Below are positions 5,469 to 29,330 of a stretch of DNA of 64,000 bases, piece by piece. Source of the stretch: Candidatus Parvarchaeum sp. (GTDB lineage: Archaea > Nanobdellota > Nanobdellia > Pacearchaeales > GW2011-AR1); NCBI GenBank assembly GCA_020724955.1, contig DYFY01000002.1:28864-92863 (forward strand), given 5' to 3'. The notes beneath the pieces are model-generated. The model saw only the letters and a program-made list of their open reading frames with translations. It made no database searches and had not been told where the DNA came from. The translations under genes were made by a program, and so were the position numbers. The stretch's first letter is position 1; each line of letters starts with the position of its first letter.

Positions 5469-5794
5469 TTTTAAAAAAATCATCTTTACTGCAAATAATA
5501 ATAAACAACAAATTTGGAGAAAGACTAACGGCATAAAAAGTCACAAATAGTAATAAGAGGTCAAAATAGCAAATTAAGCATAATTTACGACCCATCAGCA
5601 AAGGGTGGAAGCCAAGACAGAGAAACTTTCGAGTACTGTGTAAAACAAATAGAGCAAGCTTTCGCCGAGGGAATCATAGATCATGAAGAGAGAGATTCAC
5701 TAAGAGACAAGCTTAATGAAAGAACACATGATTATCTTATGGAAATCTATCCTAGACAAGATATGACTGGAAACTCGGATTTATTCTGGAAATT

Positions 5795-7775: not shown

Positions 7776-8286
7776 CTAGCGATTAAACAAGCCGTAGGGC
7801 TCGGGCAAGTAAGAAAGAATATCTTGAATACAAACATCTAATGGTCTGTTTATGTCTATGACAGTTCCATAATCAAATTCTGTTGATTTCTTATATACGG
7901 CTCGTGCGGCGTCTGCACCATGTGTTTTACCTCGTTCTTCATCTCTTGCTATGCAGACTTCCAACGGGGCTTTTAGAGTAAAAACATGATGCGGAAAATC
8001 CAATCTTTTGATTAAATCATCAATTTGAGATTTCCAGTAAAAATTGCCATCAAACACAACAGGTCTTTTGCTATCCAAAATCCGCTTTGCTTCAGGAGCA
8101 ATAATTTCATTTGCCTTGATGAAACTCTTCTGGGAAATGTATCCCTCTTCTTTTTCTTCCGTAAGATTGTGTTCATCAAGGATTCTACTACGGCAAAGTA
8201 TTTTGCGTTTAAATTTTGGATAGCTTTTCAGCTATTGTGGATTTTCCGCATCCTAATGGTCCACGAATGATAATGTAAAAGCCCAT
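7776..8286 (-). pseudogene. P-loop kinase/ATPase gene with a frameshift
   Basis: ATG at 8286 gives MGFYIIIRGPLGCGKSTIAEKLSKI then TAA; the rest (..RILDEHNL...VVFDGNFYW...) continues in another frame after an A/T run. Confidence 0.6.
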
Positions 8287-8528
8287 AGAATGTTGTAAAC
8301 GATAGCCGTATATAAGTTTTGCCGAAGCCCTCTAAATAAAAAGGCCAAAGCAGTTTTAACTCACCTTTTTTGAAAAATTCCATTTTGTTCCCTCTTAAAC
8401 TTATAACAATTTTAACACTTATTAACTTATCTTAAAAGCTGTGACTTGCCGAAAGTTATTTAAACGACAACTCCCTAAATAATTATATACAAGCCCCAGG
8501 CTTGCCCTGCAAACCTGGGTTTTTCAAA

Positions 8529-9074
8529 ATGATAAAAGTAGCTATTTTTATTGATGGTAATAATTTCTATTTTGGATTAAAAAAGTTATATGGCGATGAT
8601 TTTAAGGCAATGAAATTCAATTTTGAGAAGTTCTGTAATTTTATAGCTAATAAAAGAGAAATAGCTAATATATTCTATTACAACGCCCCCTTAGATATCA
8701 CCAAGGATATTGAAAAATATAAACTCCAACAAAGGTTCTTTGATAAGATTAGTAGAATTCCAAAATTTAATCTTGTTTTGTGTAAAATGGTTAAAAGGAG
8801 AATTAAAGGAACAAATGAATTTTATTATGTCCTCAAAGAAGACGATATTCATATGGCAGTTGATTTAGTTAAGGGGGCTTTCAAAAATACATATGATGAA
8901 GCGATTCTCGTTTCTGGAGATGGCGATTTTGTGCCAGCTGTTAAAGTTGCAAGAGAAGAGAAGAAAAAAGTTGAGAATATCTATTTCAAGAAAAGTGCCT
9001 CCACAAATTTAAAACAAAATTGTGACAAGTCTTTTCTGTTAAGAAAAGAGCTTCTTGATAAATTTTTTGATTGA
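8529..9074 (+). CDS. NYN-domain (LabA/DUF88-like) putative ribonuclease
   Basis: VAIFIDGNNFYFG..., ...EDDIHMAVDL..., ILVSGDGDFVPAV acidic motifs; first ATG at 8529 (track start is TTG). Confidence 0.8.
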   Translation: MIKVAIFIDGNNFYFGLKKLYGDDFKAMKFNFEKFCNFIANKREIANIFYYNAPLDITKDIEKYKLQQRFFDKISRIPKFNLVLCKMVKRRIKGTNEFYYVLKEDDIHMAVDLVKGAFKNTYDEAILVSGDGDFVPAVKVAREEKKKVENIYFKKSASTNLKQNCDKSFLLRKELLDKFFD

Positions 9075-9194
9075 AAAGTGCCCAATTAAATTCTCTGCGA
9101 AGCAGGCTATTTGTGCCGAAGGCACCGAGGCGATTCACATTTGACAACAATTTCTCCTATTGGATGGGAGAGAATTCTTAATTTGGACGCAATC

Positions 9195-9358
9195 TGGGAA
9201 CATCGCGATTAAGCGACCTGAAAGGCTCGAGGTGGAGAAATTTTTCCCTCGACGAAGTCAGAGCTGGAAAAATTGCGGAACGCTCGAGTGTTTTTGCGTA
9301 GCAAAAATATGGGTGGATGAGCCTGCAAGGCGAAGTAACCGCTTAATCGCTGTTAGTT
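9195..9358. repeat. Hairpin site S1 (R2 type): TGGGAAC...GTTAGTT
   Basis: AACA 9199-9202 pairs with TGTT 9351-9354; GCGATTAAGCG 9205-9215 pairs with CGCTTAATCGC 9340-9350; near-identical copy at 11149-11313. Confidence 0.7.
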
Positions 9359-9555
9359 TCGTCTGACCAACGGGAAGACCTGATTTTTAATGCAATGGTC
9401 GGCGAAGCCGAAAAAATCAGAGTTTGAGAGCCCGAGCTTTTTGTCAATAATCTGCTTTAGCAGACAATAGTTTAGGGGTGCCCGCCATTCTATTACTAAT
9501 TTAGAAGTGGTTACACAAGCGAAAGGTTTATAAATGATTTCGAATTAGCTAAATT

Positions 9556-9921
9556 ATGAAAAATACAACAAGTATTGAAGGTGTAGTGGACTCTGTTAAT
9601 ATTGACAACAGAAGCAATAATTATTGTTATTTAAATCTAGCCGTAGTTATAGGTGACGGTTCTACAAAAGAAATAAAATTTCCAATTCTCAAGAGAGGAA
9701 CAAATCCTAGATTGAATGGGATTGAAGAGAATGGAACATTTTTAAGAGAAGCTATCTCTTCTTCTCTATTAAATCAAAGGGTAGCATATAAGCTAGAATC
9801 AGACGTTGATGCTGGCAGTTCTGGGTTTTCCTATTCATCACATGAAAGGCATCAACTTGATATCTTGAGTGGTCCATTAGAAGGTAGAAGTTGTTTAGCA
9901 GACGAATACGATCCTCTTTAA
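9556..9921 (+). CDS. Hypothetical protein (cassette ORF)
   Basis: 121-aa ORF with ATG start, enclosed by three nested inverted repeats. Confidence 0.5.
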   Translation: MKNTTSIEGVVDSVNIDNRSNNYCYLNLAVVIGDGSTKEIKFPILKRGTNPRLNGIEENGTFLREAISSSLLNQRVAYKLESDVDAGSSGFSYSSHERHQLDILSGPLEGRSCLADEYDPL

Positions 9922-10007
9922 ATTTCTATTTTTTTGACGATAAAGTCAAGACTATCTGTTGCGAAGCAACTGCGGGCACCCCGTTTTTGCGAGGGCTCTC
10001 AAATTGA

Positions 10008-10100
10008 AACCAACATCCCATATTAAAGAAAGTTTTCTGTTAAGAAAATTTGGGAGAGCAACGTTTAGGGTACCTGTGAACTCTTTAATATATGTTCTGT
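10008..10100. repeat. Hairpin site S2 (R1 type): AACCAAC...GTTCTGT
   Basis: AACA 10012-10015 pairs with TGTT 10093-10096; ATATTAAAGA 10020-10029 pairs with TCTTTAATAT 10082-10091. Confidence 0.65.
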
Positions 10101-10223
10101 GCCTTTTTTCCTCAATCATTAGAGTGGAAAAAGCGAGCAATGATAATTGCTAAGAGTTTTGCTCCTAATCAGGGCTGGATGGTTGGGGTTGTGGATGGGT
10201 AGAAAAAGGAGCAAAATTGCATA
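10011..10223. repeat. 213-bp unit, copy 1 (same as 13634-13846 and 13847-14059)
   Basis: No differences seen by eye; ORF-track antisense peptides from the copies are identical over the shared part. Confidence 0.85.
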
Positions 10224-10357
10224 GAACATCGCGATTAAGAGAAGTTGTTTGCAGTAATTTTAATTCGTCCATAGGCAAACAATTTGGGCTAATTTCTGGT
10301 CGGCACGAAGCAGATTTGCGAAGCAAAAAGAAATTACCTCTTAATCGGCTGTTGGGA
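10221..10357. repeat. Hairpin site S3 (R3 type): ATAGAAC...GTTGGGA
   Basis: AACA 10225-10228 pairs with TGTT 10350-10353; CGATTAAGAG 10232-10241 pairs with CTCTTAATCG 10338-10347; internal stems TTGTTTGC/GCAAACAA and TAATTTCT/AGAAATTA. Confidence 0.65.
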
Positions 10358-10535
10358 GATTTTTCTCGTAGAGAAAAACACGAGCTGACGCACTAAGCGT
10401 CCTCGTGAGTAAAAAATTATCTTTGGGCGGGGGCGGAGGTGGAAGCTCCGCAATTAAATAGGAAAAATTATCGTGCTATTTTGAAAAATTAGGGTTGGGC
10501 GAAAGTTTTAAAAAAAGATAAAAAGCTACTAACTT

Positions 10536-10961
10536 ATGGAATCGAATGTATTAGAACAAAAAATTGATGAAATTTTAGACTTGAATAAAAGAGATAAGTC
10601 CAATAGATTCAATAGATTTAGAGGAGAACTTTTCATACTGGAAGAAGCTTATGAAGAAAATCCAGACAATTTAACAAACGAACAAAAGAAAAAATTATCA
10701 AAACTTGAAATGAAATTGGGACATTTGAGATTAGGAATGGCTGGATTTTTTGCTGGAGCCGCCGTTGGTTGTGGCATAGCAACTTACGCTAATGTTCACG
10801 ACATTGTTGAGAATGGAGTAACTGCTGCAAATTTATTAAACTCAACATTTTGGGGTGTAGAAACATTACTAACAACTGCGGGCTCTGCCATATGGGCTTA
10901 TCTCTCTTCGATTCCATATAGAAAAGGAAGAGATATTAATTATTCTGAAGCCCAAACCTAA
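10536..10961 (+). CDS. Hypothetical membrane protein (cassette ORF)
   Basis: 141 aa; charged N-terminal part, Gly/Ala-rich hydrophobic C-terminal part. Confidence 0.5.
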   Translation: MESNVLEQKIDEILDLNKRDKSNRFNRFRGELFILEEAYEENPDNLTNEQKKKLSKLEMKLGHLRLGMAGFFAGAAVGCGIATYANVHDIVENGVTAANLLNSTFWGVETLLTTAGSAIWAYLSSIPYRKGRDINYSEAQT

Positions 10962-11148
10962 GAAAAATTTGGGTGAGTGAAACGAACTGCTTAACCTTTG
11001 TTATAAGAAGTTTCAATTTCTTTCCGTTTTCGTTTATGGGTCAAGCAAAGTTTTTCTATTAATTTTCACGATAATTTTTCAGTATCTGGGTGGGAAGAAA
11101 GATAATTTTTTATTTCCCCGAGCCGAAGAATGAGGCGAGTGGTGTCAA

Positions 11149-11313
11149 TCCCAACATCGCGATTAAGCGACCTGAAAGGCTCGAGGTGTAGAAATTTTTC
11201 CCTCGACAAAGTCAGAGCTGGAAAAATTGCGGAACGCTCGAGTGTTTTTGCGTAGCAAAAATATGGGGGGATGAGCCTGCAAGGCGAAGTAACCGCTTAA
11301 TCTGCTGTTCATT
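11149..11313. repeat. Hairpin site S4 (R2 type, second copy): TCCCAAC...GTTCATT
   Basis: 4 substitutions and one 1-nt indel versus S1; identity starts at AAC and stops at GTT. Confidence 0.7.
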
Positions 11314-11515
11314 TCTCCCGAATACTTGCAGGGATTACATTTTAGTGCAACGATGCCGAAGGCAAAAATGTAAAGTTAAATCGGACTTTGGGATGGTGGG
11401 AACACCATTGGTTTTTATGTATTAGAGGATTCGCCGTCTTTTTGCTTCTTTTTTCTAAAAAGAAGATGGGGCACTTTTAGGAATCTTTATAAGTTTGTTA
11501 TTGATTTATTTAATT

Positions 11516-12010
11516 ATGAAGCCAAGGCATTTAGGAATATCAATAATAATTGTTAGCATAATTGTAATTGGTATGCTTTTTTATTTCAATTCTATCTTAA
11601 ATAAACAAAATTTAGAAATCTGTTCTGAAAGTTGCGGAACACAAGAAGGAGCTTCTTGTTCTATTGAATCGTGTCCTTTTAATGCAGAACATAATAACAG
11701 CGAGGGTTTTATTTTTATTATGGGCTTGCTCGTTGCATTTTTAGGAGGAATTGGTTTTTATCTCACTCTGACAAAAGCGGAAAAACTAATTGAACAAAAA
11801 GAATATGATTTAACCAAATTAAATAATGAAGAAAAGGATATTTTCCTGTTTATCAAAGAAAATAAAGATAAGGGAGTTTATCAGAGTAATATCGTTGAAA
11901 AATTCAATATTCCAAAATCAAAAGTTTCAAGAATATTGGATAAAATGGAAAGATTAGAAATTATTGAGAAGAAAAGAAGGGGAATGACAAATATTATTCT
12001 TTTGAAATAG
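11516..12010 (+). CDS. Membrane-anchored winged-helix regulator with an extracytoplasmic Cys cluster
   Basis: TM, then CSESCGTQEGASCSIESC, then TM, then C-terminal HTH (VYQSNIVEKFNIPKSKVSRILDKMERLEIIEKKRRG); first ATG at 11516. Confidence 0.55.
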   Translation: MKPRHLGISIIIVSIIVIGMLFYFNSILNKQNLEICSESCGTQEGASCSIESCPFNAEHNNSEGFIFIMGLLVAFLGGIGFYLTLTKAEKLIEQKEYDLTKLNNEEKDIFLFIKENKDKGVYQSNIVEKFNIPKSKVSRILDKMERLEIIEKKRRGMTNIILLK

Positions 12011-12079
12011 GACTAGTTTCAGCCAGTAGAACTAGTTTCACGTTACACTTATAAGCTGTAATTTTAACTTATTTTAATC

Positions 12080-12607
12080 ATGAGTCAGGAAATTAAGATA
12101 AAAAAGAGAACTTTATTCATTTCATTGGCAATAGTCTTTAAATTTGCTGTTTTGAGTAAAGCAAATACAAATTCTTGTGGCGGAACATTTAATTATGTTG
12201 ATTCAAAATCGCCGGACCAGAGAATCCAAGGTTCGTGTTGCGGACCTATGAATTTTCATAGATATACTGAACAAATAGAAGCACTGAAGGAATATTCAAA
12301 ATACAAGAAAATTCCTTCTGACCCTTATGATGTATCTGTTGCATTAGCCCAAGAATTATTAGATTATCAGAAAGAAATAATTTTAACAAATGAAAAACAA
12401 TTAATTTATGATGAAGCAATGGACATTTCTCATGAAGGCGGACCTTGTTGCTGTAAATGCTGGCATTGGTATGCTTACGAGGGCTTGGCAAAATATTTGA
12501 TAGTTGAAGAAGACTTTACTGCTGAACAAATAGCGGAAGTCTGGGATATTTCTGATGCTTGTGGAGGAAGCGGACATGTTGAAGGGGGAGGACATGGTCA
12601 TACATAG
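12080..12607 (+). CDS. Secreted or anchored Cys- and His-rich protein
   Basis: N-terminal hydrophobic segment; SCCGP, GGPCCCKCWHW, CGGSGHVEGGGHGHT motifs. Confidence 0.5.
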   Translation: MSQEIKIKKRTLFISLAIVFKFAVLSKANTNSCGGTFNYVDSKSPDQRIQGSCCGPMNFHRYTEQIEALKEYSKYKKIPSDPYDVSVALAQELLDYQKEIILTNEKQLIYDEAMDISHEGGPCCCKCWHWYAYEGLAKYLIVEEDFTAEQIAEVWDISDACGGSGHVEGGGHGHT

Positions 12608-12628
12608 ACAAATGAAAGGAGGTAAAAA

Positions 12629-13369
12629 ATGAGTGAAGCAACTTTAACAATAAGGAAAGACGCATTATGGAAATATAGCACTTTTTTACTTTTGGCTATA
12701 TTAGTAATTGGAGCTTTTTTTGTTTTCACAGGAAATAATAGCGGAACAACTGGAAACAATGTTGTTGCTCCAACACAACAACCAACACAGCCATCACAAG
12801 TTGAGGCAAGTGCGGACGATGATGCGTTTTTGGGAGATAAAAATGCTCCTGTTGAAATAATTGAGTTTTCTGATTATCAGTGTCCATTCTGTAGGAAATT
12901 CTGGACAGAAACTTTGCCACAAATAAAATCCGAATACATTGATACAGGAAAAGTTAAATTTGTGTATAGAGATTTTCCTTTAGATAGTATTCACCCCGGA
13001 GCTACACCTGCGGCTGAAGCTGCCGAATGTGTAAGGGATCAAGGTGGAGATGAAGCCTATTTTGAAATGCATGATAAGATTTTCTCAGAACAGAATATTC
13101 TTGATGGTGGAGACCCAATTTCTGGACCTGTAAGAGGAACAGCCCAGTTTGGAACAACTGAATTGAAAAAATGGGCTCAAGATATTGGCTATGACATTGG
13201 AAGCTGTCTTGATTCTGGAAAATTCAGAAGTGAAGTGCAAAATGATTTATCAGATGCGCAATCTGCTGGCGGAAGAGGAACTCCGTATTTTGTAATTAAT
13301 GGGAAGCCCTTAAGTGGAGCACAGCCTTTCAGTGCATTTAAACAGGTCATTGACGCAGAATTAGCTTAA
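12629..13369 (+). CDS. DsbA-like thiol:disulfide oxidoreductase, membrane-anchored
   Basis: TM anchor, thioredoxin-fold active site FSDYQCPFCRKFW, C-terminal GTPYFVINGK. Confidence 0.8.
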   Translation: MSEATLTIRKDALWKYSTFLLLAILVIGAFFVFTGNNSGTTGNNVVAPTQQPTQPSQVEASADDDAFLGDKNAPVEIIEFSDYQCPFCRKFWTETLPQIKSEYIDTGKVKFVYRDFPLDSIHPGATPAAEAAECVRDQGGDEAYFEMHDKIFSEQNILDGGDPISGPVRGTAQFGTTELKKWAQDIGYDIGSCLDSGKFRSEVQNDLSDAQSAGGRGTPYFVINGKPLSGAQPFSAFKQVIDAELA

Positions 13370-13630
13370 TTTTATTTTTTCTTTTTTATTTATTTTTTCT
13401 AAAAGTGCCCCAATAAAAAACTGAAAAATATTTGGATGTAACGAAGTGAAATCTTTTATCGTTTGTTAGGCGAAATTTTAACAAATTTCATTGGTTTTTT
13501 CTAGGTCCGATAAAAGAAGTATTTTTCTGTTTTTATCCTCGCTGAAAGCGACTATTTGTCCGAAGGACGACGGCGAATCCTCATCTTTAGGGGCGGGTGG
13601 TCGGGGGATTTCAAAGTCCGATTTAATTGA

Positions 13631-13723
13631 AATGAACATCCCATATTAAAGAAAGTTTTCTGTTAAGAAAATTTGGGAGAGCAACGTTTAGGGTACCTGT
13701 GAACTCTTTAATATATGTTCTGT
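13631..13723. repeat. Hairpin site S5 (R1 type): AATGAAC...GTTCTGT
   Basis: Same hairpin as S2; only the 4 nt 5' of AAC differ. Confidence 0.65.
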
Positions 13724-14059
13724 GCCTTTTTTCCTCAATCATTAGAGTGGAAAAAGCGAGCAATGATAATTGCTAAGAGTTTTGCTCCTAATCAGGGCTG
13801 GATGGTTGGGGTTGTGGATGGGTAGAAAAAGGAGCAAAATTGCATAGAACATCCCATATTAAAGAAAGTTTTCTGTTAAGAAAATTTGGGAGAGCAACGT
13901 TTAGGGTACCTGTGAACTCTTTAATATATGTTCTGTGCCTTTTTTCCTCAATCATTAGAGTGGAAAAAGCGAGCAATGATAATTGCTAAGAGTTTTGCTC
14001 CTAATCAGGGCTGGATGGTTGGGGTTGTGGATGGGTAGAAAAAGGAGCAAAATTGCATA
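13634..14059. repeat. Two exact tandem copies of the 213-bp unit
   Basis: GAACATCCC recurs at 13634 and 13847, and GAACA again at 14060; period 213. Confidence 0.9.
13844..13936. repeat. Hairpin site S6 (R1 type): ATAGAAC...GTTCTGT
   Basis: Second tandem copy of the R1 hairpin. Confidence 0.65.
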
Positions 14060-14116
14060 GAACAAAACGGATATTAACCTTTTAGAGGTTATATATCCGT
14101 TTAAAGGATGTTTAGT
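14057..14116. promoter_or_regulatory. Terminal site S7: ATAGAAC, 15/16-nt inverted arms around a 7-nt spacer, GTTTAGT (candidate recombinase core site)
   Basis: AAACGGATATTAACC (14065-14079), TTTTAGA, GGTTATATATCCGTTT (14087-14102); about 50 nt upstream of the recombinase ATG. Confidence 0.45.
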
Positions 14117-14150: not shown

Positions 14151-14987
14151 ATGGAAAAAGAAGAGCAGCTTCAAAGATTAACTGAACATCTACAGCTGAA
14201 AAATTATTCCAGAGAAACACAAAAAACATATTTATTTCATGTTAAAAAATACATTGAATTTCTTGGCGGGGAAAAGCCGTCTATTGAAAATGCAAAAAGA
14301 TACGTCCTGAAAAAACTTGAGACAAAAGATCCTTCATCTGTCCATCATCTCATATTCGCAATAGAATATTTCTTCAAAAACATTCTCTCTCAAAAAATAT
14401 ATATTCCAAAACCCAAAAGAAACAAGACTCTTCCAGCAATACTCACAAAGGAAGAAATAGCTTTAATCGTTAAATCAACAACAAACATAAAACACAGATT
14501 GATAATAAAGCTTCTCTATGGATGCGGGCTGAGAGTCTCTGAAATAATAAGTCTGAAAAAAGAAGATATTAATTTTGAAGAAAACCTAATCCATATAAAA
14601 TTGGCAAAGGGTAAAAAAGACAGGTTTGTAAAAATACCTGACTCTCTTACACAAGAACTCATGGCATTTTGTAATCTAACCGGCACAGAGATACTCTTTC
14701 CCTCTGCCAGGAGCGGGAAGCTGACAAAAAAGACAATCACAAAAATAGTCCAAAATTCTGCAAAAAAAGCCGGAATTAAAAAAAGAGTTTACCCTCATTT
14801 GCTCAGACACAGCTTCGCCACGCATTTGCTCGAACAAGGCACTGATTTGAGAATAATTCAAAAACTCCTTGGACACAGCGATATAAAAACCACTCAGATT
14901 TACACACAAATATCTCAGGCTTCAATAAAAAATATTAAAAGCCCTCTCGACAGCATTAATCTTTATGGAACCGAAGCTAACAATTGA
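14151..14987 (+). CDS. xerA: Tyrosine recombinase, XerA/XerC/XerD-like
   Basis: N-terminal SAM-like core-binding domain; GLRVSE (Arg), KGKKDR (Lys), HLLRHSFATHL (H..R), LGHSDIKTTQIYT (His, Tyr); first ATG at 14151. Confidence 0.85.
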   Translation: MEKEEQLQRLTEHLQLKNYSRETQKTYLFHVKKYIEFLGGEKPSIENAKRYVLKKLETKDPSSVHHLIFAIEYFFKNILSQKIYIPKPKRNKTLPAILTKEEIALIVKSTTNIKHRLIIKLLYGCGLRVSEIISLKKEDINFEENLIHIKLAKGKKDRFVKIPDSLTQELMAFCNLTGTEILFPSARSGKLTKKTITKIVQNSAKKAGIKKRVYPHLLRHSFATHLLEQGTDLRIIQKLLGHSDIKTTQIYTQISQASIKNIKSPLDSINLYGTEANN

Positions 14988-17166
14988 AAAGCCTGTAAAG
15001 CAAAAACCAAAACTTTCAGAACTGACAAAAATAGAGGTTCCTGGCAAGCCGATTCCTGCAGAAAATCTCGAAAATGATGTGGTAGAGAAAAAAAGAAAAA
15101 AACCAGGAAAAAGGAGTCCAAAGTCCTCAAGTTTGGCTACTTCTATAAAACAGCCTGAAAAAGATTCAGTCCTGATAATAACTGAAAAACCACAGGCAGC
15201 CGAAAAAATCGCCAACTCCTTAGGGCAGGCCAGAAAATATGTTGAAAACCGGGTTCCATTCTACGAAGTCTCTATTAATGGGGAAAACATAATAGTTGCT
15301 TCTGCAGTTGGGCATTTATTTAATCTTACTTATGCCTCTGGAGAAAGGGGCTGGCCGGTCTTCAAAATGCTTTGGGAGCCAAGTTTTAAGAAAGCAAGTT
15401 TTACAAAAAACTATTATGACTTGCTAAAAAAACTCTCAAAAAGAGCAAAATCATTTGTTGTGGCTACTGATTATGACATCGAGGGAGAGGTAATTGGATG
15501 GAATGTTTTAAGATTTATAGCCCGACAGCAAGACGCTAAAAGAATGAAATATTCTACTTTGACAAAACCAGAGCTTTTGAAATCATACCAAAATGCACTC
15601 CCTACGCTAGACTGGGGGCAGGCTTACGCTGGCGAAACAAGGCACCGAATAGACTGGCTTTATGGAATAAACCTTTCTCGCGCACTAATGTCTGCAATAA
15701 AAACCTCCGGCTCTTTCAAAATTCTTTCAATTGGGAGAGTGCAAGGGCCTGCCTTGAAAATTATAGTAGACAGAGAGAGAGAAATCTCCGGTTTCAGGCC
15801 TGTTCCATATTGGCAGGTCATAGCTTTGGTGAAGGGTGTTGAACTAAAACACTCCAAAGATATTTTTGACAAAAAAGAACTAGATGATTTCAAGAACTTA
15901 AAATCAGGCTCATGCACTACAAAAATCTCGGAGGAAATTTTACATCCTCCTCACCCTTTTGATTTGACAAGTTTGCAGAGAGAATCATACAATCTTCACG
16001 GAATTTCTCCTTCCAACACACTCCGCATCGCACAGTCGCTCTACCTCTCAGGACTTATTTCATATCCGAGAACATCTTCTCAAAAAATACCAAAAGAAAT
16101 AAATCCCAAATTAATTCTCGAAAATTTAAAGAAGAAGTTTCCGGAACTAACAAAACACATTTCAAGATCAGAGCCGATAGAGGGGCAAAAATCAGATCCT
16201 GCGCATCCATCTATATTTCCCACTGGAGAATTCAAAAAACTTGAAGGTGATGAGAAAAAGATATATGAATTAGTTGTTAGAAGATTTATATCCTGCTTTT
16301 CCGCAGATGCAAAATTAGACAGAAAGCGCATAACTCTCAATGCAGAAGAAAAAAAATTCACTGCATCCGGAGTGAAAATAAAATTTCCCGGATGGCTTTC
16401 AGTTTATCCTGCAAAAATAGAAGAATCAGAACTCCCGACTCTTGAAGGAAAACAAAAAATAGACGAGATAAAATTTCTGGAAAAAGAAACGCAGCCTCCA
16501 AAACGCTACACTCCTGCGTCTTTGGTAACCTTGCTTGAAAAAAAAGGCCTCGGAACCAAGACAACAAGATCAATGATAGTTGACACTTTATTCAACAGAG
16601 GTTATTTAGAAGGAAAATCCATTCAGGCCACACCACTGGGAATCAGGCTGATAGAAGCTCTTGAGAAATACTCTCCTATAATAATAGACGAAAACTTGAC
16701 AAGAGATTTGGAAAAGAAAATGGAGGAAATCCAAAACTCAAAATCTGGCTTTGAAGAAAAGGAAAAAGCAATAATAGAAAGTGTAGAGCGCCTGATAACA
16801 GATATTTCAAAAGAATTCAAAATTCATGAGAAAAACATTGGGGTCTCATTGCAGGAGGGCACCCAAGAACTCCGCGAACAGCAAAACGAGCAAAACACAA
16901 TAGCTAAATGTCCTGTCTGCAATCTTGGACAACTGGCAATAAAATATTCTAAAAAAACAAACAAATATTTTGTTGCATGCAACAGGTATCCTGAATGCAC
17001 AGCAACATACAATCTCCCTCCAAACGCACTAATAAAAAACACAGGAAAACTCAACGAAGATGGGCTTCCGATTTTAGTTGCAATCAGAAAAGGAAGACGC
17101 CCATGGGAATTTCCATTTGATCCGCACTGGAAAGAAAAACAAAACCAGGATAAAAAGCAAAGTTAA
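14965..17166 (+). CDS. topA: DNA topoisomerase I, type IA (archaeal TopA) with a Lys-rich N-terminal extension
   Basis: Toprim VLIITEKP...DYDIEGE, active-site ISYPRTSS, C-terminal zinc ribbon CPVC...CNRYPEC; overlaps the xer 3' end by 23 nt. Confidence 0.9.
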   Translation: MEPKLTIEKPVKQKPKLSELTKIEVPGKPIPAENLENDVVEKKRKKPGKRSPKSSSLATSIKQPEKDSVLIITEKPQAAEKIANSLGQARKYVENRVPFYEVSINGENIIVASAVGHLFNLTYASGERGWPVFKMLWEPSFKKASFTKNYYDLLKKLSKRAKSFVVATDYDIEGEVIGWNVLRFIARQQDAKRMKYSTLTKPELLKSYQNALPTLDWGQAYAGETRHRIDWLYGINLSRALMSAIKTSGSFKILSIGRVQGPALKIIVDREREISGFRPVPYWQVIALVKGVELKHSKDIFDKKELDDFKNLKSGSCTTKISEEILHPPHPFDLTSLQRESYNLHGISPSNTLRIAQSLYLSGLISYPRTSSQKIPKEINPKLILENLKKKFPELTKHISRSEPIEGQKSDPAHPSIFPTGEFKKLEGDEKKIYELVVRRFISCFSADAKLDRKRITLNAEEKKFTASGVKIKFPGWLSVYPAKIEESELPTLEGKQKIDEIKFLEKETQPPKRYTPASLVTLLEKKGLGTKTTRSMIVDTLFNRGYLEGKSIQATPLGIRLIEALEKYSPIIIDENLTRDLEKKMEEIQNSKSGFEEKEKAIIESVERLITDISKEFKIHEKNIGVSLQEGTQELREQQNEQNTIAKCPVCNLGQLAIKYSKKTNKYFVACNRYPECTATYNLPPNALIKNTGKLNEDGLPILVAIRKGRRPWEFPFDPHWKEKQNQDKKQS

Positions 17167-28130: not shown

Positions 28131-29330
28131 CTAAATGCAAAATTTTCCATCTTTGTAAATCACTAAACTCTCTTCATTAGCCAGAAAGGCCTCAACTTTT
28201 CTATTTTCGGTGGAAACGATATCCGTATGAACTACAGAATCATTATATCCCATTTCCTTCCAATCCTCTTTGCTGACTCCCGCAGGATTTCCTGTGTAAG
28301 AATCCTGATAGGCTTTCCCAAGAGCAATATGCATATTACCATATTTCCCACCCGCATTTTCATCAAACAAAGTTTCAGCCATAAACTTCGTTATTCTGGA
28401 AAGCCTGGAATCTGTCAAAGAAAATTCTCCAATTTTATCCGCTCCCTCAACAGCAATCATCTCTCTTAAAACCTCCTGGCCCTTTTCAGCACTGGCTTCA
28501 ACAACCTTCCCTTTCTCAAATCTTAAGAAGACACCTTCAATTAAATTTCCATAAACATACAAAGGTTTATCAAATCTCACACTTCCCTCTGCAATTCTGC
28601 AATCAGGAGAAATAAAAACCTCGAAACTGGGAATGTTTCTTCCGCTTCCCCCAAGCCACTTCCTGTTTTTGCCAATTCCGACAATTAAATCAACATTCTC
28701 ACCTTTAACATGCAACTTCTCAATTTCTAAAGAATTCAGCTTTTCTTTCACTCTCTCAACTTCACTAATAATTTCTTTCCATTTCTCTTTAGGATTATCA
28801 AAATCAAGATAACAGGCCTTTATTATTTCCTGCCAATATTCCTCCAGAGAGAGCCCTGCTTCTTTGGCCATCGCTTCAGTCCCGTACAAAGCCAAAGTCC
28901 AGCTGAACTTTCCCGCATTCTCCTTCTCGTTTTTCCAGTCAAAATACTTCTTGAAAGCCTCTCCATTCATCATTATCTTTTTTGCATCTACTCCTTCCAA
29001 TTCTCTTGGGTTTGAAGAGGCAATTATATTGACAGAATGATCTATTACATCAACTCTCCCCTTCAGATATTTTTCTGGAAAAAACTTTAATTGCTCCTCG
29101 TTAGCCAGCTCGAAAAACTCTCTTCTCATATCATCAGGAACAAACTGAACAATTGGATGCCCGCCAGATTTTAATACAGCCCTCCTTAGCGCCAGAAGCA
29201 TCGGTTTAGCGCACTCAGGCACTTGCAAAAACACTACATCTCCTCTTCTGATTCCCTGGCAGTCATTTAAGGCAAAATTAATCAAAACATCTGCATATTT
29301 GTCCAGTATGTCTTCAGAAATTTCGCTCAT
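28131..29330 (-). CDS. M29-family aminopeptidase (AmpS/PepS-like)
   Basis: 399 aa; EIGEFSLTD, FDENAGGKYGNMHIALG, HTDIV motifs. Confidence 0.8.
   Translation of the reverse strand: MSEISEDILDKYADVLINFALNDCQGIRRGDVVFLQVPECAKPMLLALRRAVLKSGGHPIVQFVPDDMRREFFELANEEQLKFFPEKYLKGRVDVIDHSVNIIASSNPRELEGVDAKKIMMNGEAFKKYFDWKNEKENAGKFSWTLALYGTEAMAKEAGLSLEEYWQEIIKACYLDFDNPKEKWKEIISEVERVKEKLNSLEIEKLHVKGENVDLIVGIGKNRKWLGGSGRNIPSFEVFISPDCRIAEGSVRFDKPLYVYGNLIEGVFLRFEKGKVVEASAEKGQEVLREMIAVEGADKIGEFSLTDSRLSRITKFMAETLFDENAGGKYGNMHIALGKAYQDSYTGNPAGVSKEDWKEMGYNDSVVHTDIVSTENRKVEAFLANEESLVIYKDGKFCI

Follow-up and report, generated by a model that had tools for sequence, protein, structure and literature searches.

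Why do the genes of an archaeal cassette array lie in the loops of long-range inverted repeats that differ from one cassette to the next? The question is raised by a stretch of 64,000 nucleotides (nt) from Candidatus Parvarchaeum sp. (Pacearchaeales; GenBank assembly GCA_020724955.1, contig DYFY01000002.1, forward-strand positions 28,864 to 92,863), which was analysed as a whole and is called the window below. The window is archaeal (ribosomal protein L15e and an archaeal-type topoisomerase I are encoded; G+C about 36%) and carries, at about 8386–14112, an array in which variable bodies and conserved hairpins alternate, with the gene of a XerA-family tyrosine recombinase beyond its end. On balance, we lean towards reading this locus as an integron-like cassette array of a DPANN archaeon that is served by the adjacent XerA, the helices being the outer stem of an attC-like site that is split around the cargo.

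Every junction hairpin (H) in the array has AACA at its left bound and TGTT at its right. Type A hairpins follow the consensus AACA-TC-GCGATTAAG...CTTAATCGC-TGTT, with two copies that are 98% identical (9199–9354 and 11153–11309) and a variant, A' (10225–10353); the type Bh hairpin (10012–10096) is shorter. Bh and a 136-nt cassette without an open reading frame (ORF), Cb, together form a 213-nt B unit that is found once after cassette C1 and twice in tandem at the array end. The features of the locus are listed from left to right, with R denoting the terminal helix of a cassette.

8386–9202, + strand: leftmost cassette, with an NYN-domain gene at 8502–9074
9199–9354, + strand: junction hairpin H, type A copy 1, AACA-TC-GCGATTAAGCG...CGCTTAATCGC-TGTT, with a branched tip and GNA triloops; attC-like site
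9351–9485, + strand: C1 leader with the 5' arms (R 9351–9360, helix 2 9423–9433, helix 3 9475–9485)
9527–9921, + strand: C1 expression unit, with a TATA-like box (9527–9534) and an orphan 121-aa ORF (9556–9921), both within the innermost helix
9972–10015, + strand: C1 trailer with the 3' arms (helix 3 9972–9982, helix 2 9993–10003, 'TT' spacer, R 10006–10015 with the AACA end)
10012–10096, + strand: junction hairpin H, type Bh, AACA-TCCC-ATATTAAAGA...TCTTTAATAT-A-TGTT
10093–10228, + strand: ORF-less 136-nt cassette Cb (R 10093–10102/10219–10228, helix 2 10157–10166/10207–10216)
10225–10353, + strand: junction hairpin H, type A'
10350–10475, + strand: C2 leader with the 5' arms (R 10350–10357, helix 2 10410–10424, helix 3 10462–10475)
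10506–10961, + strand: C2 expression unit, with a TATA-like box (10506–10517) and a 141-aa ORF (10536–10961)
11067–11156, + strand: C2 trailer with the 3' arms (helix 3 11067–11080, helix 2 11098–11112, R 11149–11156)
11153–11309, + strand: junction hairpin H, type A copy 2
11306–11483, + strand: C3 leader with the 5' arms (R 11306–11315, helix 2 11376–11390, helix 3 11425–11438, helix 4 11467–11483)
11485–13369, + strand: C3 cargo, with a TATA-like box (11485–11493) and three genes
11516–12010, + strand: C3 gene 1, membrane MarR/DUF7343 protein
12080–12607, + strand: C3 gene 2, Cys-rich 175-aa protein
12629–13369, + strand: C3 gene 3, DsbA-like thioredoxin
13396–13638, + strand: C3 trailer with the 3' arms (helix 4 13396–13412, helix 3 13569–13582, helix 2 13612–13626, R 13629–13638)
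13639–14064, + strand: two tandem B units (Bh + Cb) with a 213-nt period, adjoining the terminal site T
14061–14112, + strand: terminal site T, AACA-AAACGGATATTAACC-TTTTAGA-GGTTATATATCCGTTT, attI-like or dif-like, with no cassette after it
14151–14987, + strand: XerA-family tyrosine recombinase, 278 aa, directly downstream of T
14965–17166: topA (archaeal topoisomerase I), its start overlapped by the xerA stop (14965–14987)

An earlier note on this DNA had described the repeats of C1 (9351–10015), C2 (from the TGTT at 10350 to the AACA at 11156) and C3 (11306–13638) as strictly nested and as perfect matches of 11–14 bp. The repeats are present where the note placed them and the nesting is strict in all three cassettes, but they are not all perfect: the outer helix of C1 pairs in nine of ten positions, with one A·C mismatch between TGTTAGTTTC and GAAACCAACA. 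The two inner helices of C1 have 11 bp each, the outer helix of C3 has 10 bp and helix 3 has 14 bp in both C2 and C3; helix 2 is 15 bp in C2 and in C3, and helix 4 of C3 spans 17 nt at 94%. The outer helix of C2, for which no coordinates had been given, was placed at 10350–10357 (TGTTGGGA) and 11149–11156 (TCCCAACA). Folding of whole cassettes with both RNA and DNA parameters, which the note had proposed as a check, recovered the nested helices in C1 (665 nt). They are contained in the minimum-free-energy and centroid folds with DNA parameters on both strands and with RNA parameters on the + strand, with z-scores of −4.5 to −5.9, and a local mini-hairpin module (9361–9422) is bulged out between R and helix 2. 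The three copies of ORF-less Cb have the same helix layout as the gene-bearing cassettes.

The claim that the layout is constant while the sequences differ was found to extend beyond the window, to about 20 cassettes of other DPANN genomes and to a metagenome set. When one genome per species was scanned for the 15-nt left arm of hairpin A, many chance matches came up, together with 24 loci that hold the whole hairpin, AACATCGCGATTAAGAGAAGTT-(hairpin)-AATTTGG-(hairpin)-CCTCTTAATCGCTGTT; the majority of these loci are in metagenome-assembled genomes (MAGs) of Woese-, Pace-, Nano- and Aenigmarchaeota. In the shared layout, the terminal helix has 10 bp (TGTT+6 / 6+AACA) and is separated from helix 2 on the 3' side by 'TT', a 2-nt spacer (the 'A-TT' junction). 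Helix 2 is perfect, has 10–16 bp and starts 12 nt from the 3' end and 50–90 nt from the 5' end; a third helix is usual and a fourth is sometimes present. Scanning for the two-helix signature gave about 50 matches in real loci and 3 in shuffled sequence, which bears out the note's judgement that chance is very unlikely. In a set of 23 cassettes that was partly picked for possessing such a helix, leaders were compared with the 10-mer that lies 12–21 nt from the 3' end: the leader of the same cassette contains an exact inverted copy in 18 cases, the leaders of other cassettes in 0 of 506 comparisons. In an independent metagenome set, a strict test for an exact partner was positive for 33 of 96 trailers (2 of 96 in a reversed-only control) and a relaxed test for 37 of 56 (control, 6 of 56). 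As the layout recurs in many independent assemblies, neither chance nor low complexity nor an assembly artefact can explain it.

Complete A-type hairpins were also seen on contigs that are binned outside the DPANN archaea, in Thermoplasmatales and Methanosarcinales bins (loci L004, L026, L031 and L079) and in bacterial bins (L046, L077 and L081). This could reflect either mis-binning or a true spread beyond DPANN. Within the trailers, a module composed of GACTATYTGT and a CGNAG mini-hairpin directly precedes the 3' arm of helix 3 (window 9955–9971 and 13543–13568; L032, L073 and L001). It is kept in several unrelated cassettes, and in L073 the 5' arm of helix 3 is preceded by a further copy. 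Some trailers carry, on the sense strand and between the 3' arms of helices 3 and 2, the G-tract GGGGCGGGTGGTCGGGGG (window 13591–13608; L001, about 640–657; L053; L038), which could form a G-quadruplex. Such tracts occur in only 6 of 153 trailers; they are thus a module of a sub-family, and a general part in the system was rejected for them.

The recombinase next to the array was assigned by comparison with curated family models and with solved relatives. It scores 230.3 bits against NF040815 (recomb_XerA_Arch), above the cut-off of 220, but only 210 bits, in two stretches, against the integron integrase family TIGR02249, which has a cut-off of 265. Its best solved relative is Pyrococcus abyssi XerA (4A8E; E = 3.7e-52), aligned in one stretch, whereas the match to VchIntIA (2A3V) is split: residues 167–191 of the query stand opposite IntI 174–242, with about 44 residues missing. 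By these comparisons the enzyme is of the XerA type and lacks the domain specific to integron integrases. Since this IntI domain is the defining feature, the system was not filed as an integron.

Of 20 informative loci, 19 have a homologue of this XerA (34–75% identical) downstream of the array and on its strand; the genome loci contribute 10 of 11 and the metagenome loci 9 of 9. topA adjoins xerA in this genome alone, so that the conserved neighbour of xerA is the array; the overlap of the two genes suggests their co-transcription here. The cassette units themselves encode no recombinase. Between array and xerA lies the terminal site T, which in relatives (L057 and L032) is a short palindrome with arms of 11–12 nt and a spacer of 5–7 nt; the T of the window has imperfect arms of 15/16 nt with an indel, and a 7-nt spacer. 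H and T have AACA-N-ATTAA in common. In a sample with an identical XerA protein, T is the same but the cassette joined to it, at AACA|AAACGG, is another one, a sign of cassette turnover at the terminal site.

The association between hairpins and bodies revealed what moves. Cb comes after each of the three Bh copies, and among 147 pairs of near-identical H interiors on different contigs the downstream leader alone is shared in 37 and the upstream trailer alone in none. The mobile unit is therefore the hairpin with the body that follows it, and we infer an exchange point at or beside the AACA to the left of H. AACA and TGTT are invariant, the triplets AAC and GTT stand at the hairpin base in 23 of 23 cassettes, and above them follow an 11-bp L stem and branched tips. 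Circular junctions reconstituted from trailer, H and leader folded as a single long rod that is tipped by H and in which the R and L helices are stacked next to each other. In the window the unit next to T is tandemly duplicated (13639–14064, Bh + Cb twice), as would be expected if integration occurs at T, repeatedly. In L057 (1–960), the first hairpin has the same trailer end on either side, and the same expectation covers this case.

A mechanism is proposed in which the mobile unit consists of H (AACA-TC, the 11-bp 'ATTAAG' stem, a branched tip and TGTT) and the variable body after it, and in which new units are inserted at T beside xerA. Strand exchange would take place at or next to the AACA left of H, possibly as AA|CA on the + strand if the analogy with bacterial integrons holds. 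The nested helices would work in single-stranded DNA of the + strand, as the outer part of the folded recombination site of the unit. In a circular unit, trailer, AACA, H, TGTT and leader would be contiguous, so the stem of H would be prolonged by the 10-bp R helix and then by helices 2–4; integration at AACA would split this stem, and the gene would appear in the array within the loop of the nested helices. H alone would offer an R arm of only 4 bp (AACA/TGTT), and the recombinase would need a duplex arm of about 10 bp. A full R arm could thus arise only when the 3' end of the body pairs with its own 5' start, across 0.1–2.3 kb. Helices 2–4 may serve as a zipper or address code, specific to each cassette, and stabilize the short R helix; as they differ between units, a unit's own ends would pair with each other and not with those of a neighbour. 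The R (TGTTA...) and L (GATTAAG...) arms have a TTA core in common, in inverted orientation around a bulged centre, CA-TC-GCGA; to judge from the motifs, two recombinase monomers would be accommodated in this way. We put forward, tentatively, that DPANN archaea capture genes by means of a plain XerA acting on folded single-stranded DNA with self-addressed split sites, where long-range helices define which ends belong together.

Several points weigh against this reading. The helices are not universal or not always intact, because about a third of the trailers are partnerless: among the 56 trailers for which 1.5 kb or more of upstream sequence was available, 19 lack a detectable partner, and one (L038) has none within 5.5 kb. 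Some cassette junctions are devoid of any H hairpin. Among 97 A-type H sites, no contig with a circular or tandem junction was found. Folding energies separate neither DNA from RNA nor the two strands, and the extra bases of H are on the arm opposite to that of the extrahelical bases of bacterial attC. Copying or repair in hairpins, instead of selection for function, could keep the complementarity perfect, and XerA may be a housekeeping resolvase of chromosome dimers whose dif site draws elements.

At some junctions, H is cut down to a few bases between AACA and TGTT (L012, AACATCGGCGCTGTT; L114, AACATCGGAAGTTCCTGTT; L089 at about 2262–2285, GAATATAAGCTCTGTT), and L054, at a contig end, opens like L114. 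Such reduced junctions may be deletion derivatives or minimal sites. In L038 (reverse strand, 5469–5551) and L089 (3992–4074), the last 64 nt or so of the trailer are common and 97.6% identical but are attached to different hairpins and leaders. Sharing of whole units between these loci was rejected, as only this trailer end is common to both, and the pattern points to a mosaicism finer than whole cassettes.

The strongest competing explanation is that T is the chromosomal dif site, that XerA is an ordinary dimer resolvase and that the units are selfish elements stacked in tandem at dif, akin to the integrative mobile elements exploiting Xer (IMEXs). CTX-phi and other IMEXs exploit Xer in bacteria, and CTX-phi integrates as a folded single strand via XerCD. 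In the archaeal version the helices would likewise belong to an attP-like site formed by a folded single strand; the system, however, would be a parasitic one instead of serving the host as a dedicated platform for gene capture. The XerA assignment of the recombinase, with the P. abyssi enzyme as its best solved relative, would suit this explanation, as would the tandem duplication beside T and the presence of a single Xer homologue within the 64-kb window; in addition, the T palindrome of the relatives resembles the 11-6-11 layout of archaeal dif (PMC8371274). The window T fits less well, as its arms are imperfect, and the junction is at AACA, which is outside the T palindrome and not within its spacer. 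Moreover, the units are without replication or structural genes and carry one small cargo gene or none, as integron cassettes do. We regard this explanation as less likely; it is a live alternative for the classification of the system, and the proposed role of the helices is unchanged by it.

A second explanation would see the repeats as footprints of the making or repair of cassettes, left by fold-back synthesis, by gene insertion into the tips of pre-existing long hairpins or by correction of mismatches within hairpins, without a role of their own. Copying would yield arms that are perfect over 11–16 bp, as observed; leaders and trailers are mosaics of common modules, and the partnerless trailers would also be accounted for. 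Covariation argues against such an origin. The 50–90 nt between the terminal helix and helix 2 are occupied by a family of conserved small-hairpin modules, and eight cassettes of one leader-module family could be aligned on their conserved flanks and scored over three helices. Of the 26 pairs, 16 vary on both sides; 91% of cells are paired, compared with 37–54% when the partners are slid by 1–3 columns, and none of 500 shuffles matched the observed covariation values. The covarying pairs are nearly all Watson–Crick, with a single G·U pair among 208 cells. Window C3 and locus L032 have leader and trailer modules in common, and every helix is different, each arm fitting its own partner.

Related scaffolds thus retain the pairings via compensatory change, in agreement with what the earlier note expected of homologous cassettes. 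The test was made on homologous leader and trailer scaffolds with different cargo, since the C1 protein has no homologue, its sole match among 5.8 billion proteins being itself. The geometry is also kept across lineages whose XerA proteins are only 34–75% identical (a 3' offset of exactly 12 nt, 'A-TT', a 5' offset of 50–90 nt), and the 136-nt ORF-less cassette retains the layout. The helices are general and under structural constraint, and a mere by-product is improbable.

A third explanation places the pairing in RNA: the array or its cassettes would be transcribed across both arms, and the helices would be processing stems, closed-loop mRNAs or precursors of circular RNAs. The earlier note had offered the pairing of leader and trailer in a closed loop or processing stem next to the folding of the cassette DNA into one long imperfect hairpin. 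RNA folding of C1 likewise gives the three nested helices, and read-through transcription of the array could occur. The arrangement of the genes speaks otherwise. Among 20 cassettes with the same asymmetric helix geometry, the cargo is array-sense in 9 and on the opposite strand in 11. First genes have an archaeal TATA-like box about 22–30 nt upstream of the ATG, within the innermost helix, so that the predicted leaderless transcripts begin downstream of the 5' arms; to judge from these boxes, the two arms would not come to lie on one RNA, an outcome that the earlier note had named as a refutation. No Rfam family apart from three tRNAs was matched in the whole window at the gathering threshold, and none in the array region at E ≤ 1. 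Bulge-helix-bulge geometry is absent from the helix bases; the helix junctions instead show a 2-nt 'TT' bulge opposite the 50–90-nt module.

The hairpin tips are also biased towards one strand. They are predominantly GNA triloops closed by C-G (GCGAAGC, GCGTAGC, CCGAAGG, CTGCAAG), of which the sense strand has 61, compared with 10 loops of the complementary TNC type. The counts are 87 for CGNAG and 15 for CTNCG, and in the window array CGAAG occurs 14 times and CTTCG once. A one-strand bias of this type is typical of DNA mini-hairpins, and d(GCGNAGC) is presented in PMC13037366 as a classic, extraordinarily stable one. The bottom strand of bacterial attCaadA1 has a GAA tip, and its change to TTC lowers IntI1 binding (PMC2727003). 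Strand bias, gene orientations and the near absence of G·T pairs all fit the folding of single-stranded DNA. Together with the polar linkage of the layout to the recombinase gene, they make an RNA-level role very improbable, and the evidence favours folded single-stranded DNA as the probable substrate.

That the repeats could be terminal inverted repeats of elements resembling miniature inverted-repeat transposable elements (MITEs), moved by a transposase, is hardly credible despite the inverted ends of the cassettes, as beyond TGTT/AACA the repeats differ between cassettes and could not be read by sequence by a protein, neither a transposase gene nor a target-site duplication was seen, and the units are strictly arrayed beside one recombinase gene.

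The left edge of the array has a different character. The trailer of the leftmost cassette (8386–9202) has the typical CGAAG mini-hairpins and GGGAACA at its end; matching 5' arms were looked for in this cassette and none was found, and it is probably an eroded unit, the oldest of the array. A P-loop kinase gene (AAA_33; 7776–8285, − strand) at this edge appears frameshifted, and kinase gene and NYN-domain cassette together may be the eroded oldest end. Searches for exact matches to the C1 and C2 proteins recovered only fragments with identical cassette sequences, and the 21-nt H arm had no match in viral contigs, hence no sign of a viral carrier.

Integron integrases are thought to have been derived from Xer-like recombinases by gain of a domain that reads folded attC. 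How a recombinase made this step, and how cassettes gain their sites, are the questions on which the present system bears. Here, a Xer-type enzyme without the IntI domain stands beside cassette arrays in many DPANN lineages, and recognition has apparently been solved otherwise, by long, cassette-specific DNA helices that would rebuild the duplex arm. A gene-capture system of this kind could have been invented independently, or it could represent, as a living model, the step from Xer/dif to integron, a suggestion that we make with some reserve. If it is true, it would provide a testable model of the Xer-to-integron transition, a route by which archaea with very small genomes exchange genes, and a design principle for structure-specific recombination sites in which the site is split around the cargo and carries a base-pairing address.

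Among known systems, bacterial integrons offer several parallels. They also have an array of small cassettes adjoining a tyrosine recombinase gene; hairpins between the cassettes, with AAC/GTT at their base, an L stem further in and a branched tip that varies; about 10 nt of complementarity between cassette ends; and insertion at the recombinase-proximal site, as inferred here. In both, one strand is apparently the folded substrate. When the locus is flipped, with the recombinase gene pointing away from the array, its order becomes recombinase, attI-like site, (cassette-attC)n, and the + strand corresponds to the 'bottom strand' of integrons, which in bacteria is cut between the A and C of AAC (PMC2727003). 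The ends of bacterial cassettes self-pair over 9–11 nt only (PMC2727003). This pairing is equivalent to the outermost helix described here, and helices 2–4 have no counterpart; as far as the accessible literature goes, this agrees with the statement of the earlier note that ordinary integron cassettes do not have such helices. The stem here runs 30–50 bp past the R box as helices 2–4, split across the gene, and leaders and trailers are filled with GNA mini-hairpin modules. The recombinase is without the IntI-specific domain. Genes are in either orientation with their own promoters, whereas those of bacterial integrons are promoterless and read from Pc, and the hairpin is on the promoter side of sense-oriented genes.

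Ghaly et al. (2022; PMC9668308) also describe arrays of cassettes in archaea whose hairpins are of the attC type. They define archaeal integrons by an IntI with the extra domain and report a few Woesearchaeales and Pacearchaeales MAGs with 2–4 attCs and no IntI. Some arrays of the present kind may already have been counted there as clusters of attC sites lacking integron integrases (CALINs). As far as the accessible text of that paper goes, its results and discussion gave no link to XerA and no pairing past the attC, and the conserved GCGATTAAG arm is absent from its accessible supplementary text. Literature searches on Xer-linked or integron-like archaeal cassette arrays yielded nothing beyond this study, and we could not find an earlier description of a XerA-linked array with cassette-specific helices.

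Three further systems share traits with the array. In archaeal pre-rRNA, gene-flanking sequences also pair over a long range, but at the RNA level and with a defined 3-4-3 bulge-helix-bulge motif, which is absent here. On Acinetobacter plasmids, genes are grouped in discrete pdif modules with a Xer-type site at each bound; these are ordinary double-stranded sites of 28 bp in alternating orientation, unlike the hairpin sites and the long-range pairing across each module seen here. Xer/dif and the IMEXs have in common with the present locus a Xer-family recombinase that adjoins a short palindromic site, tandem elements on one side of it and, in CTX-phi, the folded single strand as the integrating substrate. 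They differ in that the units here are archaeal and are tiny cargo cassettes, not phages or plasmids, and that the sites are long branched hairpins whose outer stem would be split by integration. The system is best placed as integron-like with a Xer-type recombinase, among systems of the integron/IMEX kind.

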